A stretch of 64,000 bases of DNA, taken from sequence record PP400788, one strand, 5' to 3'. Position numbers and translations under genes: made by a program. The DNA is from Escherichia phage FL33. Below the pieces are notes generated by a model. That model saw nothing but the letters and a program-made list of their open reading frames with translations. It was not told the origin of the DNA and made no database searches. Positions 9,686-55,082 of this stretch are shown here, piece after piece. Every line of letters begins with the position of its first letter. Positions within the stretch are counted from its first letter, which is position 1.

Positions 9686-10369
9686 TTATCGTTTAGTTGG
9701 AAGAGATAGAGGATCGCATTCTTCCTCTGATGGAGCGTCTTCAAGACCCATAGCATATCGCAAAGCATACTTCATCATCAGGATGTCTTTCGCACAGTCA
9801 TGAATAGAATCATGTGCAACGAATCCATCTAAAGTTCCCTTTGGAAGAGGACACGTGGTCATATCACGAACAAGCAGAAGTGCTTCAATTCTGGTACGAA
9901 TATCACGCTGATTCCAGAATTTACATGGTTCTAATTTAAATGTGTCAAGTTCATTCTCAGAAACGCCATTAAGACGTTGAATATCGCGAATGAGATCGAC
10001 TAAAATTGGAAAATCAAACGACATTCCACGGCACCAGCCTTGAGATTTCCAAGGATCGATATTATGCGCATTGATATAATCATTAAATTTTGCAATACCA
10101 TCGATAGTGCTTACATCTTCATCTGATGGTGCAATATTTTTTCGAGCTTCAGGAGACTGATTTTTCCACCATTCGATAGTGCTTTTAGTAAAAAGACGAT
10201 GTCCTTTTTGGCTTTTTAAATCAAATTTGATTTTAATGCCACGTGAAACTAATTCATCAAATGTTTCAACCACTTCTGGGTTAGGGTCAAAGGCAATAAC
10301 AGCCAAATCAATAACAGCTGCTTTTTCACCACTTCCCATTGTTTCAAAATCTATAATAAAATCAAACAT
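9686..10369 (-). CDS. dexA: exonuclease A (DEDDh 3'-5' exonuclease), 227 aa
   Basis: Length equals T4 DexA as recalled; N-terminal FDFIIDFET exonuclease motif; position next to dda. Confidence 0.8.
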   Translation of the reverse strand: MFDFIIDFETMGSGEKAAVIDLAVIAFDPNPEVVETFDELVSRGIKIKFDLKSQKGHRLFTKSTIEWWKNQSPEARKNIAPSDEDVSTIDGIAKFNDYINAHNIDPWKSQGWCRGMSFDFPILVDLIRDIQRLNGVSENELDTFKLEPCKFWNQRDIRTRIEALLLVRDMTTCPLPKGTLDGFVAHDSIHDCAKDILMMKYALRYAMGLEDAPSEEECDPLSLPTKR

Positions 10370-10644
10370 TAAATTTTCCTTGCTAAATCGCGAATTTGAC
10401 CTATAGTATAGTCTTGAATATAAACTTTATTAATAGGTTCATCAATAAATTTTGCCATAGATTCAATATCTTTTTGCATCTCTTCAAGACTGTATATTAT
10501 CTTTAAAGCTTTTTCGCGAATGGTAATATTTTCAGGACCAGAATTTTTCTCAATGACGGCTTTAACATTTGTCATAAGAGATTTAAACTGACGCCAACTT
10601 AATTCAATCATTAATAACCGCCTTATAAAGATGGCTAATTTCAC
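10369..10644 (-). CDS. hypothetical protein, 91 aa
   Basis: ORF; real start may be internal. Confidence 0.4.
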   Translation of the reverse strand: MKLAIFIRRLLMIELSWRQFKSLMTNVKAVIEKNSGPENITIREKALKIIYSLEEMQKDIESMAKFIDEPINKVYIQDYTIGQIRDLARKI

Positions 10645-23614: not shown

Positions 23615-24457
23615 TTAATCAACTACTATTGGATGAATAGCATTAAACTTATGAAACGCTTCTGATTTTTCTTTGCGCGAAACACACATGCGAAGAACCT
23701 TTAATGGCTCATCTTCTTCACCCAACGATTTTCTCTTTTCAATATTCGATGTTTTCCAACGAGCTTGCTCTGGAAATTCTCTATTGATTTGCTCAAGCGC
23801 TCTATTATGTTTAGAATTGCTACGAATTGAACTACATCCACCGGGGGCTTGTGCTTTTCCGGATACAACCAGATATTTGAACAAGGCCAAATGCGGATAA
23901 CCTTGATTAATTAAATTGAGAAATGCATACATATCTTCGCATAAATCAATTTTTCCATACCCAATTTGTTCTGTTGTAAGTTTTCCAAGGTCATACCATG
24001 TATTCGTGAATCCATATGAATTTTCACGATAATTACCCCAAGATGAAGTAATTTTAAAAATAGGTAGACGAGCATGGCCATGATAATACCCGCAATCCAT
24101 GGCATCTTCAACGTATTGAATCAATTCATAGAACTGTTCACGAGTTAATTGATTAATTTTATCTACGCAGCGACGATCATCTTTCTTTCGCATTGAACTC
24201 ATACGAATAGTAGTATCATCATCGATCATCCAAATTCGTTGACCTGCATACATATCAGTAATTGCTTTACGAGTACCGGCAATTCCATTAACATCATCAG
24301 GAATAGCTATAATTTTAGCTCTAGACCCATAAGCATCATAATAAGCTTTTTCTTCGTGTTCACGCACTACAATATGGGGTTCATAATCAGTCGGAAACAT
24401 ATTAAGGGCAGAAACTGCCCCGACACGCTGATAACTTGGAATTACGAATTGAATCAT
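23615..24457 (-). CDS. GT-A-fold glycosyltransferase, 280 aa; probable beta-glucosyl-HMC-alpha-glucosyltransferase (T2/T6 type)
   Basis: IPSYQR N-terminus and DDD motif; sits at the T4 beta-gt locus but is not T4 beta-gt. Confidence 0.5.
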   Translation of the reverse strand: MIQFVIPSYQRVGAVSALNMFPTDYEPHIVVREHEEKAYYDAYGSRAKIIAIPDDVNGIAGTRKAITDMYAGQRIWMIDDDTTIRMSSMRKKDDRRCVDKINQLTREQFYELIQYVEDAMDCGYYHGHARLPIFKITSSWGNYRENSYGFTNTWYDLGKLTTEQIGYGKIDLCEDMYAFLNLINQGYPHLALFKYLVVSGKAQAPGGCSSIRSNSKHNRALEQINREFPEQARWKTSNIEKRKSLGEEDEPLKVLRMCVSRKEKSEAFHKFNAIHPIVVD

Positions 24458-25095
24458 TTAAGTGCCTTACATTTGTCAAAATGGTATCTTGTCATATTTG
24501 GCCCACGTCCTTTTAGTCCGCAATGCGGACATATTTTTTCTATCAAATTATGAGGTTTTCCTTTACGATTTTTAGACATCGTTTCTTTAATTATTTTAGC
24601 TTTTTCTGCGCCAAAAATTTCTTCATAAGTTTTACCAGAATTTTCCTTTGCTCGATTTATAATTCCATATGCCTGCTCATTTTTACCATACATTGGATTA
24701 CCTTCGCCTTTCATTCTTTTAGAATGGTCAGGACGCTTAATTCCACGAAAGGCATTTCCACATTTATATCTTTCTTCTGGAGATAGTTTCTTACCGTACA
24801 TTCCATTTAATTTGCCCGGAAAACTTCCTCCCCATGCTTCATTCTTTAAATTATATGAATCTGGACAATTAGCAGCATCTAAACAAGTTAAAATAATTTC
24901 TTCAACCTGTCTAAACATTGGTCCTTCATATAATATTTCTTTATTAAAGGATTTTATTCCATATTTCTTTTTAGCATGTTGCCAAACTACACCCGAACCA
25001 TCATAATTCAGGTTGTGACCATCATGACTTCCTATATACCACTTTTTAGTTTTAGGATGTTTATACTTATAAACATGTGGCGCATTTACTTCCAT
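24454..25095 (-). mobile_element. Seg-like GIY-YIG homing endonuclease gene, 213 aa
   Basis: VYKYKHPKTKKWYIGSH GIY-YIG motif plus NUMOD-like repeats; both ends overlap flanking genes. Confidence 0.7.
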
Positions 25096-25826
25096 TTTCC
25101 AGTATAATCCTTTTTAGCAATATGGGTTTCACCGGTGTTCCACCAATGGTCAACCAAATAAAACTGATTTTCGTACACATGAAGACTTCCAACATTCCAT
25201 ATAATAGAACCTGCTTTATACTGTCGTGATGGGTCGCCTGCATTCAAATCAGATACTAATTTATCTAGTACGTATTTTTGCCACGCATAATCATTACGAT
25301 AGCCTGCCCAGCAGTCATTGCTTCTCATATTAACAACTGCATTGACTTTCTTATCACGAATTAAGTATTGTACTGTATTAGTACACATGAAATCTGACAT
25401 ACCATCTTTATTGTAGTCAAATTGCATGGATGGACGAGTATAAATCATGATACCACGTCGAGAATCAGGATTTTGACCAAGTTCAGCTAAACACATATCA
25501 TACTGGGCATAGTTATCTTCTGACCAGATAGCCCAACCATAATTCGAGTTAATTTCGCCTTTAGAAGATGCTACTTGCTGCCAAATCTTCGGTGTTTCAC
25601 CCGGAATATCTTTAACGAACAAGCTTTTAGATTTATACCATTCAAGTTCACGCTGAATGTATTCATCATTAAGAGCGCCAAAAATAAACGGTTCATCTGC
25701 TACAAATGATGCGCCAATAATTTCAATAGTTTTAACACCAGTTTTATCAACTACGAAATCTTTTTCTTTTAATGCAAGCCCCAAATGAAGACGGATTTCT
25801 TCAACTGTCATAGAGTCACTAATCAT
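25086..25826 (-). CDS. 42: dCMP hydroxymethylase gp42, 246 aa
   Basis: Thymidylate-synthase-like fold; length equals T4 gp42 as recalled. Confidence 0.9.
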   Translation of the reverse strand: MISDSMTVEEIRLHLGLALKEKDFVVDKTGVKTIEIIGASFVADEPFIFGALNDEYIQRELEWYKSKSLFVKDIPGETPKIWQQVASSKGEINSNYGWAIWSEDNYAQYDMCLAELGQNPDSRRGIMIYTRPSMQFDYNKDGMSDFMCTNTVQYLIRDKKVNAVVNMRSNDCWAGYRNDYAWQKYVLDKLVSDLNAGDPSRQYKAGSIIWNVGSLHVYENQFYLVDHWWNTGETHIAKKDYTGKWK

Positions 25827-50839: not shown

Positions 50840-51363
50840 GCGAGTACCGTCTTTAACCGTTCTTCAAACTTCCGAAGAGTATTTTGGCGTTCAGCTCTTT
50901 GCTTTTTGTAAGTTTCAATACGCTCTGAAATGAGAGAGTATCGTTCATTTACTGATTCTTTCATAAAATCAGGAATTTCACGAGAAGCTTTAATCTCATC
51001 AAATTTATCAATAACAGCTTGCTCTTCAGCAATTAAGTTATCATACATTAAAATATCTTTCTTGATGAACTCAATATCTTCTTGAGTTACACGAGATAAT
51101 TTAGATACTTTATCCTTTTTGTACTGTTCGTTAGTATCACGAGACCAGTGCAATGTACGATTTTTATTCGTATTCTTGTAAATTTCTACAATACCAATCT
51201 CATCGATAATAACGATCCAATTCCAACGGGATTTGTAAATTTGTCCTCCATCAACAGTGATTTCACCTCCGATTGAGATGTCATTAAAGAACTTACTTTG
51301 TGCTTCAGATTTAAATTTACCATCGTTGTAATTTACCAAGTTGAAAATATCTTTAGCGTTCAT
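50836..51363 (-). CDS. hypothetical protein, 175 aa, C-terminal coiled coil
   Basis: ORF downstream of early promoter 51392-51421. Confidence 0.55.
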   Translation of the reverse strand: MNAKDIFNLVNYNDGKFKSEAQSKFFNDISIGGEITVDGGQIYKSRWNWIVIIDEIGIVEIYKNTNKNRTLHWSRDTNEQYKKDKVSKLSRVTQEDIEFIKKDILMYDNLIAEEQAVIDKFDEIKASREIPDFMKESVNERYSLISERIETYKKQRAERQNTLRKFEERLKTVLA

Positions 51364-51391
51364 TTTGTGTTCCTCCGTAGTTGATAGTTGT

Positions 51392-51421
51392 ATAGTACCA
51401 CAGAGGAACAGTCTTGTAAAC
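51392..51421 (-). promoter_or_regulatory. T4-type early promoter
   Basis: GTTTAC 51416-51421, TGGTACTAT -10. Confidence 0.55.
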
Positions 51422-51423
51422 CA

Positions 51424-51738
51424 CTAAAAGAAACTTCTTTCACAATTTTTTCCACTGAACCATGCGCTTACCGCTTTCTTAGTCTCAGGAGCAGTGTTAT
51501 CCATAAACCATTCAAAGGCAGCCTTTTTATGATTCTGGAGGGCTTCTCGGGCTTTAATCTGCTCACGGTCTATTAACACTAACATATGAGCCTTTCTTGT
51601 CACCATGGGCTTCTTATGATTTTTTGAATACTCCCAGTCATTTGTCCATCGCATTGTCGTTGCAAATTGAAATACAGCTTCTTTAATCTTAGTTTCGTAA
51701 ATTTCACGAGCCTTTGAGTATAACATCACTACCTCCAT
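51424..51738 (-). CDS. hypothetical protein, 104 aa
   Basis: ORF. Confidence 0.5.
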   Translation of the reverse strand: MEVVMLYSKAREIYETKIKEAVFQFATTMRWTNDWEYSKNHKKPMVTRKAHMLVLIDREQIKAREALQNHKKAAFEWFMDNTAPETKKAVSAWFSGKNCERSFF

Positions 51739-51808
51739 TTACCAGTTTAATTCTAGTCATCTTTTTAATGGCAGTCCATATAATCTATTTCTGAACTGCC
51801 TTTTTGTC

Positions 51809-52528
51809 TTAGGATTCTTCTAAATGTCTTTTCTGAAAAGTTGATACCATACTACGATACGGTTCATTTGGATATCCATGTTTTATAGCTTCCTTTGTAA
51901 ATTTTCTCCATCCACATTTAGTTTCTTTCCAAAGCTCGAATAATTCATCTTCATACTGCCATATAGTTAAATGAGAACGCTTTGCAGCTTTAATTCCATT
52001 AATATGCTTTTCTTTTACTACAGGATTGCTTAGTTTCTTTTTAATAATATTACTAACTTTTCTAACAAAAACTGGGTCCTTATATCGTTGCGAAGTTTTT
52101 ATTGAAGTGTTTAATTTAGCTTCCGGCGTGGATGTGACCTCTTTCATCTTTTTCTTCATATGCTGTATATGATTAGGATTTTTCCATAAATTTATAGAAT
52201 GCTTTTTGCATTTTATCCTAGTTTCATCTGCAACCTTTCCTCCTTCACCCCCGTATGACAGGTTAACGCAGTTTTTTCCATATTTCAATTTACCTGCCAT
52301 GATATATAATATTTCGGCTTGTACCATTTTATCATAATTATCAAAAACTTCTAAAACCGTTTTTGATAATATATGGTCATTTGACACTTTTACACGTTCT
52401 ATATAATTTCCACTACCAACATACGAATCATTGATGTTATTAGTTATATGTCGACCATAATAGTATTTCTTAATACCTGTCTTTAAATTTAATATTTCAG
52501 TTTTATAGATAGTAAAATATTTTTTCAT
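51809..52528 (-). mobile_element. Seg-like GIY-YIG homing endonuclease gene, 239 aa
   Basis: TIYKTEILNLKTGIKKYYYGRH ... YVGSG motif arrangement as in T4 Seg proteins; stop overlaps neighbour start. Confidence 0.55.
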
Positions 52529-53505
52529 TTTAATAATACCGTTTCAGCAATTTCTTCCCAACCGTTTTTGTCGGTCATAATAAAGTCAGCAAGATAAAGA
52601 GCAGTACGCAGTGAAACATTGCGTAAACGATTAACATTAACTTTCATCCATGATAATGCTTTATAAGTTTCTTCATCAGAAAGACCGCGCTTTTGCATCA
52701 TGTCAGTTGAAAGAATAACATCTTCAACCCTGACCATAATTTCTTCATTGGTGTGAACACCCAAATCCAAATAAACTGAGCGGGACACTAATGCTTGTAA
52801 GTGTGGGGCAAGTTTAGTACCACGGTCTAATTCGCGGTCAATATCAACGTTTGTGATAAAAACAATCGTTCCTTTAAATTCAAACTCACGGTCAATGCCT
52901 TTTTCTTCTAAGTAAGAAGATGCAGTGCTCCAGCAGACTTTACGGGTCTCTCCAGTGTCCAGAGCGGCTTTTAGAAGATTAAGAATATCCATATCAGAGA
53001 AAACATCCACATCATCAATCAAAAGGACAGAATTCTCTTCACGATTATTCCAAAGCTGCTCATAAAGACCAATACCAGAGATTTTACCATTAATGCTTTT
53101 ATATTCAATGTATCCAATATCATTTGCTTTATTTAAAGCTTTATCTAAAGAATACGTTTTACCAATACCTGCTGCGCCAGAGATAATTAATGAACGAATA
53201 TTTCCATTAATAATACCATTCGTCATCATTCCCATAACATTAAATCTTTTATTAATGCGGGTTTTCATATCTTCATATGATTCTTTAACTTCTTCAACTT
53301 TTACACCATCATATGAAATATCTGATTTGTAAACCCAAACACCACGACGTTTACCGTCAATTTCAACAAAAACTTTACCATCTCCTTGTGCATCTACCGG
53401 AGCATTATCTGGGAACCATTCGCCTAAGAGCTCAAAAGTTCCAGAGATTTCTTTACCGAAGTAGATACCCTTATTGATAGTTACAGTTTTCATTTTATTC
53501 TCCAA
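52525..53505 (-). CDS. P-loop ATPase (AAA-like), 326 aa
   Basis: Walker A GAAGIGKTY, Walker B VLLIDDVD. Confidence 0.6.
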   Translation of the reverse strand: MENKMKTVTINKGIYFGKEISGTFELLGEWFPDNAPVDAQGDGKVFVEIDGKRRGVWVYKSDISYDGVKVEEVKESYEDMKTRINKRFNVMGMMTNGIINGNIRSLIISGAAGIGKTYSLDKALNKANDIGYIEYKSINGKISGIGLYEQLWNNREENSVLLIDDVDVFSDMDILNLLKAALDTGETRKVCWSTASSYLEEKGIDREFEFKGTIVFITNVDIDRELDRGTKLAPHLQALVSRSVYLDLGVHTNEEIMVRVEDVILSTDMMQKRGLSDEETYKALSWMKVNVNRLRNVSLRTALYLADFIMTDKNGWEEIAETVLLK

Positions 53506-53527
53506 ATCCGTATCAGTTGATAGTTGT

Positions 53528-53557
53528 ATAGTACCATAAAGCTTTATGCTTGTAAAC
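53528..53557 (-). promoter_or_regulatory. T4-type early promoter
   Basis: GTTTAC 53552-53557, TGGTACTAT -10. Confidence 0.55.
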
Positions 53558-53588
53558 AGTTTTGTGAAAAATTTTTGAAATAAAAAAA

Positions 53589-53608
53589 AGGGAGCCCGAA
53601 GGCTCCCT
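53589..53608 (-). terminator. strong intrinsic terminator after the nucleotidyltransferase gene
   Basis: GGGAGCC-UUCG-GGCUCCC then UUUUUUUU in minus sense. Confidence 0.7.
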
Positions 53609-53610
53609 TA

Positions 53611-54624
53611 TCATTTATAATAACTTCGGTGGTTTTCAAGATAAACCCTCTCAAGGAAGTCATCCCAGAAACTCATGTCTACTTTTTGCTGCATACCGTT
53701 CTTAGAAGCTTCAATGGATGCTGCTTCTACTTGATCGACCACATCTTCCAAAAACTCTTGGACAGTTTTAAATGGATGTTTACCCAACTTCACGTCGAGA
53801 ATAAATGGAGCATCTTGGAGTGGATAAACCAAATCACCAGTTTTGTAAATTTCCAATAGTTGGAGTCCACCACGGCAAGCATGACTAAGAGCTTTCCAGT
53901 CAATGCCCTCATTCGCTTCAGCCTTACGAGCACGTTCGCCGTATTCAGCATCTAATTTGTTCAGTGACTGCTTAAGCTCAATAAGAGAAAGCGTTGTCTG
54001 ATATTTACGACCCAACACAGTATAGAACGTTTGCGGGCCTGTTTTCTCGTGATTATGGAACACCCATTCACAGAACTCGTTCTCTGGAAGACGATGCTTA
54101 ATATCTTCAACTTTAGTGCGACGCTGCTTAATGGAACCGTCTTCTTGATAATCAACCCACTGATCGGGGATTTGATTAACTACTTTCAATACATCACGCA
54201 ATGCGGCCAAACGAGAACCCTTAACACCATATTTAGAAGCTTGCTTGCGAACATATCCTAAATAGGATTTCATGTTAGTTGTATAAAAACGAGAACGATT
54301 GTCTTGAATAAACTTCCATACATCAGGCAAATCTGATTTAACTACCAGTTCAGGTGGAGTATGGAGCATATCCAATGCTACGGTTTCACCATCTGCTGCT
54401 AATTTAAAGAAATATTTAAGACTGTATAGTTCATGGTCAATATCATCTTTAGTGTTTTTAGATGATGTGTTGTTAGTGTTTTTACTCATATGCTCTTTAA
54501 CATTTCCGATAAGAATATCGCGAGCAGGAGGAACAAAGATTTCTTTAAAATCTACATCAGATTCTGGAGTAGAAGTTCCATAAAGATGACTACCAAAATA
54601 GCTTTTCATTACTGTTTTCATCAT
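53611..54624 (-). CDS. pol-beta-superfamily nucleotidyltransferase, 337 aa
   Basis: N-terminal GS-x10-DVD motif (YFGSHLYGTSTPESDVDF) and downstream LDML acidic strand. Confidence 0.55.
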   Translation of the reverse strand: MMKTVMKSYFGSHLYGTSTPESDVDFKEIFVPPARDILIGNVKEHMSKNTNNTSSKNTKDDIDHELYSLKYFFKLAADGETVALDMLHTPPELVVKSDLPDVWKFIQDNRSRFYTTNMKSYLGYVRKQASKYGVKGSRLAALRDVLKVVNQIPDQWVDYQEDGSIKQRRTKVEDIKHRLPENEFCEWVFHNHEKTGPQTFYTVLGRKYQTTLSLIELKQSLNKLDAEYGERARKAEANEGIDWKALSHACRGGLQLLEIYKTGDLVYPLQDAPFILDVKLGKHPFKTVQEFLEDVVDQVEAASIEASKNGMQQKVDMSFWDDFLERVYLENHRSYYK

Positions 54625-55082
54625 TCAGCCTTATATTCAATAACAGGACATACTTTAGCTTTACGAGCTTTTAAAAATTCGACGATAATAGATTTCTTGG
54701 GTTGAATAGGAGGTAAACCTTTATACGCCCTATCAATATTTTCTACATGTAAAGCATAATCCTTTTTCCATTTATAATCTTTATATTTTTCATGCAGTTG
54801 TGCAGGAATAACACATGAACCGATAATAAGTAAAACAAGCAAAATAGCAAGTATAAATGCTGATGGAATAAGAGTCCATAAACTACCAAAAATAAGCCAT
54901 TTCTGTATGATTTCTGCACAGATGATAGTTAGACCTGCGAGTATAGTACATCCGAAAAAAGAAACGAAAAATGTAGGAATAACAATAGACCAAAAATACG
55001 CGCACAGTGTCTTAGGTCGTTTCCATTCATCATTAAACATTTTGAATAATTTATAATGCCAAGAGTTTTCATTAATAATCAT
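54621..55082 (-). CDS. membrane protein, 153 aa
   Basis: Three predicted TM segments. Confidence 0.55.
   Translation of the reverse strand: MIINENSWHYKLFKMFNDEWKRPKTLCAYFWSIVIPTFFVSFFGCTILAGLTIICAEIIQKWLIFGSLWTLIPSAFILAILLVLLIIGSCVIPAQLHEKYKDYKWKKDYALHVENIDRAYKGLPPIQPKKSIIVEFLKARKAKVCPVIEYKAE

Follow-up and report, generated by a model that had tools for sequence, protein, structure and literature searches.

Insertion behind nrdC.10 in Escherichia phage FL33 of a probable homing endonuclease gene, free-standing and of the Seg (GIY-YIG) type

Seg endonucleases of phage T4 and the gene of phage FL33

The closest described systems are found among the homing endonucleases of phage T4. SegF is encoded by a free-standing gene at the 3' end of a conserved gene (gene 56), with overlapping start and stop codons, and both its activity and its intronless homing with localized marker exclusion are proven. 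SegA is encoded at the uvsX/beta-gt locus, and segE lies between inh and uvsW. I-TevI (structure 1LN0) is encoded within the td intron, and its catalytic domain displays a three-stranded sheet with flanking helices. MobD possesses a different, HNH catalytic domain, and its gene flanks nrdC.11 in T4.

The DNA analysed here (the "window") is a stretch of 64,000 nucleotides from Escherichia phage FL33 (PP400788), a T6-like coliphage of the genus Tequatrovirus. The 3.9 kb surrounding the gene under study match Escherichia phage FL34 at 100% identity, and T6, RB32, RB14, AR1, and many other Tequatrovirus genomes at 97-98%. The gene is located as follows:

51809..52528, minus strand: free-standing gene of a probable Seg-type GIY-YIG homing endonuclease, 239 aa plus stop (ORF listing, PHROG 314, and annotations in relatives)

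A preliminary description had placed a Seg-like GIY-YIG endonuclease in the nrdC-tk region, from a 239-aa ORF with TIYK, YYYGRH, and YVGSG arranged as in T4 Seg proteins. The ORF and its motifs, TIY(8), YYYG(25)RH(27), and YVGSG(40), are found at exactly this place, with an ATG start and an N-terminus reading MKKYFTIYKTEILNLKTGIKKYYYGRHITNNINDSYVGSG in the ORF listing, and the proposal, here for a T-even phage and its stretch from nrdC to tk, is supported by what follows. The gene itself is already known: a seg-like annotation dates from the RB32 genome (2006), and the protein is in UniProt for T6 and in PHROG 314. In RB32, the order nrdC.11, nrdC.10, ORF093c, nrdC.9, nrdC.8 is annotated, ORF093c being labelled [quoted passage not shown]. 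Identical or near-identical ORFs are labelled "homing endonuclease" or seg-like in FL34, RB32, T6, RB14, and others. No paper naming or characterising the gene, and no cleavage or homing data for its product (hereafter, the endonuclease protein), were found in the literature searched.

Compared with the T4 proteins using phmmer, the endonuclease protein matches SegA best (38.1 bits), followed by SegB and SegE (36.6 bits each, over the catalytic domain), SegF (28.4 bits), SegC (23.7 bits), and SegD (23.0 bits). SegA has the same length and the same three-part architecture, and the match covers both YYG-x-H-x-T...ND-x-Y-x-GSG...E...N-L-x-x-GGEGG and the C-terminal W...ELW...GYPN..Y..M..F. The two proteins, however, are ~30% identical, their genes occupy different genomic sites, and SegA passes the Pfam GIY-YIG and NUMOD3 thresholds whereas the endonuclease protein passes neither. 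With SegE, identity (~33%) is confined to the N-terminal domain, and the C-terminal halves differ; the "segE" label given to the gene in some GenBank records (RB68, AR1) is therefore a misnomer, as both the site and the C-terminal half differ from those of T4 segE. SegF is Pfam-negative like the endonuclease protein and has the repeat and C-terminal regions in common with it, although its gene has another target. Of the systems compared, SegF offers the best model for the mechanism. Identity with I-TevI is ~17%, and I-TevI is intron-encoded whereas the gene is free-standing here; furthermore, helix alpha-1 of I-TevI, which carries R27, is absent from the endonuclease protein. MobD shares the repeat region and the C-terminal module (22.7 bits, residues 123-233 against 138-248), and its gene belongs to the same nrdC.10-nrdC.11 neighbourhood. 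Orthology with any of the named T4 seg genes (segA-G) is rejected, because the best match is ~30% identical and lies at a different site, and because the corresponding T4 site is empty.

The same description had counted this gene as the second Seg-like one, which is correct, since the sole other Seg-like ORF in the window is found at 24454-25095 on the minus strand. This 213-aa ORF overlaps the genes on either side of it, a 280-aa glycosyltransferase-like ORF (23615-24457) and gene 42 (25086-25826). It matches the Seg family profile (E 1.7e-14) and T4 SegA, SegB, and SegC (~37 bits), gives only a weak NUMOD3 match in Pfam, and contains a CPHC...C motif at its C-terminus. In T4, this position is devoid of seg genes, segA being located between uvsX and beta-gt.

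Catalytic domain, helical repeats, and C-terminal module

The endonuclease protein can be divided into three parts:

52238..52528, minus strand: N-terminal GIY-YIG catalytic domain, aa 1-97, with TIY8, YYG25, H27, D34-x-Y36-x-G38-S-G40, E72, N89, and GG93-94
51971..52225, minus strand: tandem array of five helical 17-residue units (aa 102-186), probably a DNA-binding linker of the NUMOD3-like type (repeat register and model)
51812..51970, minus strand: C-terminal domain of ~50 aa, aa 187-239, a predicted DNA-binding module (phmmer alignments)

PHROG 314, annotated as homing endonuclease, matches residues 1-238 with an E-value of 5.6e-30. An exhaustive HMMER scan of 1.84 billion representatives returns 1436 relatives at E<=1e-3; a word-indexed homologue search with the single protein finds 2 proteins only, and an alignment query is needed. 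Among 102 aligned relatives, 33 match PF19835 (SegE_GIY-YIG), 15 match PF01541 (GIY-YIG), and 35 match NUMOD3. Y8, G25, Y36, G38, G40, E72, and N89 are invariant in this alignment, and Y23 (>=90%), H27, T29, D34, S39, G93, and G94 are nearly so. The protein thus displays the "GIY" box tyrosine (TIY8) and the "YIG" box Tyr-Gly (YYG25), as well as the Seg signature H-x-T-x(4)-D-x-Y-x-G-S-G with GG-x-GG after the asparagine; H27, T29, D34, Y36, G38, S39, G40, G93, G94, G96, and G97 align with T4 SegA-E. When the family profile is aligned with I-TevI by hhalign (probability 80.6%, E 1.3e-5), Y8 pairs with Y6, Y23-G25 with Y17-G19, and E72 and N89 with the catalytic E75 and the C-terminal N90, respectively.

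The AlphaFold2 model computed from a 122-sequence alignment is of high confidence over residues 1-90 (mean pLDDT of 87-96 per 10-residue block), the single-sequence model being unusable (pLDDT 41). The N-terminal domain displays a beta-beta-alpha-beta-alpha topology, and its three-stranded sheet and flanking helices form the fold of the I-TevI catalytic domain. Foldseek returns 81 matches at E<=1e-3 in BFVD, and those listed are mostly named Seg-like, GIY-YIG, or homing endonucleases. The resemblance to Seg proteins is well beyond chance, and these independent methods together give strong positive evidence that the ORF product is a Seg-type GIY-YIG enzyme.

Curated domain libraries give a different picture. 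Pfam assigns no family to the whole protein at E<=1, none to residues 1-100 even at E<=10, and no NUMOD to the C-terminal 139 aa; the curated thresholds of PF01541 and PF19835 are not reached, and NCBIfam returns no match. No GIY-YIG chain is found by phmmer among all PDB chains, either with the single sequence or with the 102-sequence profile, and Foldseek of the model against the PDB gives no match. In the same Pfam run, T4 SegA and SegE pass and T4 SegF matches zero families. Since SegF is a proven GIY-YIG homing endonuclease, the Pfam result for the endonuclease protein reflects a failure of sensitivity: curated GIY-YIG HMMs overlook some genuine Seg enzymes, and a negative result is therefore no ground for rejection. 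The preliminary description had held that the lack of a GIY-YIG hit in profile searches would refute the assignment. Pfam and NCBIfam indeed return none, but with the proven SegF equally Pfam-negative this yardstick is too strict. In addition, tblastn gave 31% matches next to nrdD; their identification as I-TevII was dropped, as direct BLASTP to T4 I-TevII yielded an E-value of 0.011 over 39 residues.

One departure from I-TevI concerns the catalytic arginine. In both the alignment and hhalign, R27 of I-TevI has no aligned counterpart, because its helix is a gap in Seg-type sequences. The endonuclease protein contains R26 and R45, which are not conserved in T4 SegA-F, and the 102-sequence family alignment has no conserved arginine column. 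The active T4 Seg enzymes also lack an arginine at the position aligned with R27.

Following the catalytic domain, the model exhibits five consecutive helices (101-116, 118-132, 135-148, 152-166, and 169-180), and the first four of the five 17-residue repeats end in proline. These repeats resemble NUMOD3-type linkers and do not score against the NUMOD3 HMM, which 35 of the 102 homologues match; a NUMOD3-like DNA-binding linker is the probable assignment. The C-terminal module reads W190...ELW...GYPNEPY...M...F231, and phmmer aligns this segment with SegA 180-215, MobD 200-248, and the C-terminus of SegF. Its pLDDT is 55-75, and no fold is therefore claimed for it. Over a longer segment (51812-52165, minus strand, aa 122-239), the protein aligns with the C-terminal half of MobD as well as with SegA and SegF. 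The module is probably DNA-binding and common to SegA, SegF, and the HNH enzyme MobD; the alignments therefore suggest one putative DNA-binding module carried by two different catalytic domains, an example of the DNA-binding modules that appear to be common to several endonuclease families.

The nrdC.10-nrdC.9 junction and its polymorphism

All genes in this part of the window are on the minus strand, and their order along transcription is nrdC.11, nrdC.10, the endonuclease gene, and nrdC.9. The two immediate neighbours are:

52525..53505, minus strand: nrdC.10, AAA-type ATPase gene, which hosts the insertion at its 3' end and is the probable target (weak Pfam AAA matches, PHROG 1250 at E 5e-166, RB32 and T4 annotation)
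51424..51738, minus strand: nrdC.9, next gene downstream, matching DUF7203 in Pfam (E 3e-15) and annotated in RB32 and T4

nrdC.10 encodes a P-loop/AAA-type ATPase, as indicated by the weak AAA matches and PHROG 1250, and nrdC.11 a nucleotidyltransferase (Pfam RlaP, PHROG 388). For nrdC.10, the mechanical ORF call takes a TTG as the start (326 aa); in relatives, the annotated start is the ATG at 53493, four codons further on (322 aa). The label "thioredoxin", given to nrdC.8 to nrdC.11 in many GenBank records, is an artefact of annotation. The endonuclease ATG overlaps the nrdC.10 stop codon as ATGA, and a 70-bp spacer separates the 3' end of the ORF from the following 104-aa ORF. The gene had been placed directly upstream of the ATPase/nucleotidyltransferase pair; as all genes here are on the minus strand, it is instead transcriptionally downstream (3') of nrdC.11 and nrdC.10. 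It stands free between nrdC.10 and nrdC.9, outside any intron: an Rfam scan of 51000-54000 finds no group I intron, which excludes such a context.

A 2082-bp query (nrdC.9, the ORF, and nrdC.10) retrieves 502 records at >=95% flank identity. The site is filled in 66 of them and empty in the other 436, the BLAST span being 2082 bp in filled alleles and 1385 bp in empty ones (net +697 bp). Carriers, which always have the gene between nrdC.10 and nrdC.9, include T6, RB3, RB5, RB6, RB7, RB9, RB10, RB14, RB32, RB33, RB51, RB68, and AR1. T4 has an empty site, without any gene between nrdC.9 and nrdC.10. The junctions were compared in T4, F13076, fPS-2, RB32, FL12, and JoYop, and two segments can be delineated:

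51813..52543, no strand assigned: DNA specific to endonuclease-carrying genomes, ~731 bp (alignment with T4, junction comparison)
52525..52545, minus strand: recoded last seven nrdC.10 codons (AETVLLK*) with the ATGA overlap, proposed immunity/target region (comparison of filled and empty alleles)

The ~731 bp of carrier-specific DNA replace ~34-39 bp of the empty site. The nrdC.10 tail of the filled allele reads GCT GAA ACG GTA TTA TTA AAA TGA (AETVLLK*), that of the empty allele (F13076, fPS-2) GCT GAG GTT ACT CTT CTG AAA TAA (AEVTLLK*). These amount to ~9 changes in 21 bases, against a divergence of 1-4% in the flanks. T4 displays a private tail (ATGYSSEINS*, T4 locus 10344-10380), a small indel/frameshift variant of the proposed target segment. 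The GC content of the ORF is 29.7%, versus 35.6-39% for its neighbours. Four filled and three empty loci were compared, and no flank SNP among them is linked to the gene being present; no co-conversion footprint is therefore visible in these seven loci.

Outside Tequatrovirus, the nearest relatives share 46% identity with the endonuclease protein and belong mainly to Klebsiella phages. In the Jiaodavirus genome examined, the gene lies immediately 3' of the nrdC.10 orthologue (74% identical), and it is present in 7 of ~143 closely related genomes. There, filled and empty alleles begin to diverge within the same last nrdC.10 codons, after ...GAAATTGCTGAAGTAAC. The empty alleles of both genera have in common GCTGARGTWAC...CTGAAATAATT around the stop codon, and carriers lack exactly that part. 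The nrdC.10 stop-codon region is therefore the likeliest, putative, recognition or cleavage region, and the recoded tail would likely be the basis of self-immunity. The Jiaodavirus gene also matches the 261-kb record PP355768.1 (Klebsiella phage vB_Kpn_AM_K6) at three places, alone and without its usual flanks, which might reflect either an artefact of assembly or a different insertion site.

The comparison with relatives thus reveals a clean presence/absence polymorphism at a single site in 66 of 502 close relatives. Together with the low GC content and the homologue at the same junction in another genus, it supports the earlier proposal of a mobile endonuclease. The accompanying idea, that neighbouring cargo genes are mobilised by homing, does not stand: the 436 empty-site relatives have both nrdC.9 and nrdC.10, 96-99% identical, and nrdC.11 is annotated beside both filled (RB32, JoYop) and empty (T4, fPS-2) sites. 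The three genes, found in relatives with or without the endonuclease gene, are therefore residents and not cargo, and homing would at most swap alleles over a short co-conversion tract, mobilising no new genes. Homing by SegB, SegE, SegF, and SegG co-converts flanking markers (PMC2988022, PMC2330249), and such an allele replacement is therefore plausible.

mobD is absent from the window. Its position is occupied by a 153-aa predicted membrane ORF (54621-55082, minus strand), annotated in RB32 as "replaces mobD". Mutual exclusion of mobD and the endonuclease gene is rejected, as at least 12 records carry both (RB3, 5, 6, 7, 9, 10, FL08, FL12, F25, PTE-Eco15, Lv5cm, and pSe_SNUABM_01), in which nrdC.10-nrdC.11 is therefore bracketed by two endonuclease genes.

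Two candidate signals are found between nrdC.11 and nrdC.10:

53528..53556, minus strand: promoter-like site TTTACA-17-TACTAT with TG, upstream of nrdC.10 (predicted, consensus scan only)
53588..53609, minus strand: intrinsic-terminator-like hairpin between nrdC.11 and nrdC.10 (9-bp stem with 6 GC pairs, then a T-run)

The hairpin, a strong terminator-like one, is directly followed by the promoter-like site (53528-53609, minus strand), and the annotation of phage fPS-2 likewise has a terminator here. Rfam gives matches below threshold (L20_leader, PhrS, and others), which are all centred on the hairpin and are probably spurious. No comparable promoter- or terminator-like signal is found directly before the endonuclease ORF. 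The promoter-like site is the likely source of a transcript that would also cover the endonuclease gene, and co-transcription with nrdC.10, with coupled low-level translation, would be the simplest reading of this arrangement.

Among intact copies, pN/pS is 0.09-0.18, with few substitutions. Some copies are degraded: that of FL12 (686-1405) has lost its start codon and is frameshifted near codon 139, and those of RB3 and RB10 are frameshifted, the tblastn match being split in two pieces. These data indicate purifying selection and, in some copies, decay, as is usual for genes of this kind.

Proposed homing cycle, alternatives, and significance

The evidence above is best accounted for by a free-standing gene that has entered the 3' end of nrdC.10 and encodes a homing endonuclease of the T4 Seg type, its catalytic domain being GIY-YIG; a probability of about 0.8 is assigned to this reading. 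The data establish the ORF, its fold, the conserved motif residues, the polymorphism at one site in each of two genera, the recoded junction, the selection and decay, and the low GC content, whereas nuclease activity, target position, mode of expression, and homing are predicted from them. The gene would probably share an early transcript with nrdC.10, and its translation, coupled to the nrdC.10 stop codon through the ATGA overlap, would be low. Upon co-infection with a relative devoid of the gene, as are ~87% of sequenced Tequatrovirus, T4 included, the helical repeats and the C-terminal module would attach to the empty allele near its nrdC.10 stop codon, and the GIY-YIG domain would then cut both strands nearby. 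Repair of the break by the phage recombination machinery from the carrier genome would copy the gene with a short flank, and the outcome would be intronless homing with localized marker exclusion. The carrier itself would be protected by the insertion, in which the intergenic DNA is replaced and the final seven codons of nrdC.10 are changed. Homology to Seg proteins is by itself no guarantee of homing, as T4 SegD reportedly does not drive the homing of its own gene.

The gene might alternatively be viewed as a Seg-derived relic that has lost homing, being catalytically dead or kept for another use as a general or mis-targeted nuclease or DNA-binding protein. The lack of a canonical arginine equivalent to I-TevI R27, scores below every curated GIY-YIG HMM, the presence of the gene in only 13% of relatives with some copies frameshifted, and the entry of T4 SegD activity as not determined in a review table would all fit such a relic. 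It is nevertheless unlikely: the residues invariant across the 102 relatives are all intact, proven active T4 Seg enzymes also lack that arginine, the pN/pS values reveal selection on the protein, and a clean same-site polymorphism in two genera is what active or recently active homing would yield. Hardly worth retaining is the view that GIY...YIG-like letters arose by chance in an unrelated product; the silence of Pfam and NCBIfam, even for the N-terminal 100 residues at E<=10, and of PDB sequence searches would suit it, yet PHROG 314, the phmmer matches to T4 Seg proteins, and the hhalign match to I-TevI already refute it.

In T6, breaks made by SegB cause anti-defence loci to be amplified, one of them gp49.2 in the nrdC region (PMC13096335, 2026). 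T6 also carries the gene described here, and nrdC.10-nrdC.11 is bracketed by this gene and mobD in the records listed above. The main selected role might then be a benefit to the phage over selfish spread, through the exclusion of competitor genomes or the recombination or segmental amplification of useful genes close by. The sequence gives no hint of such a role, the T6 study implicates SegB and not the nrdC.10-associated gene, and the neighbours have no demonstrated anti-defence role; moreover, a benefit would be compatible with ordinary homing and would not replace it. It is thus very improbable as the main role. A related and highly speculative possibility, scarcely better placed, is that the lineage is a long-term specialist of the nrdC.10 stop-codon region, as the same junction in Tequatrovirus and Jiaodavirus might suggest, and that, where the gene and mobD together bracket nrdC.10-nrdC.11 (e.g., in RB3, RB5, or RB10), breaks at the two sites turn this pair into a recombination or amplification cassette, in analogy to the SegB-driven amplification in T6. 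If true, this would give the cargo idea a real basis.

A homing endonuclease gene of the Seg type thus remains the preferred reading. The gene is a real but ordinary selfish gene, which belongs with the T4 Seg free-standing GIY-YIG homing endonucleases, its activity being predicted. Sequence comparison suggests a candidate target in the nrdC.10 stop-codon region, and the "segE" and "thioredoxin" labels given to this region in many GenBank records are unreliable. The gene extends the list of selfish endonuclease genes known from T-even phages by one unnamed Seg lineage, with little significance beyond bookkeeping.
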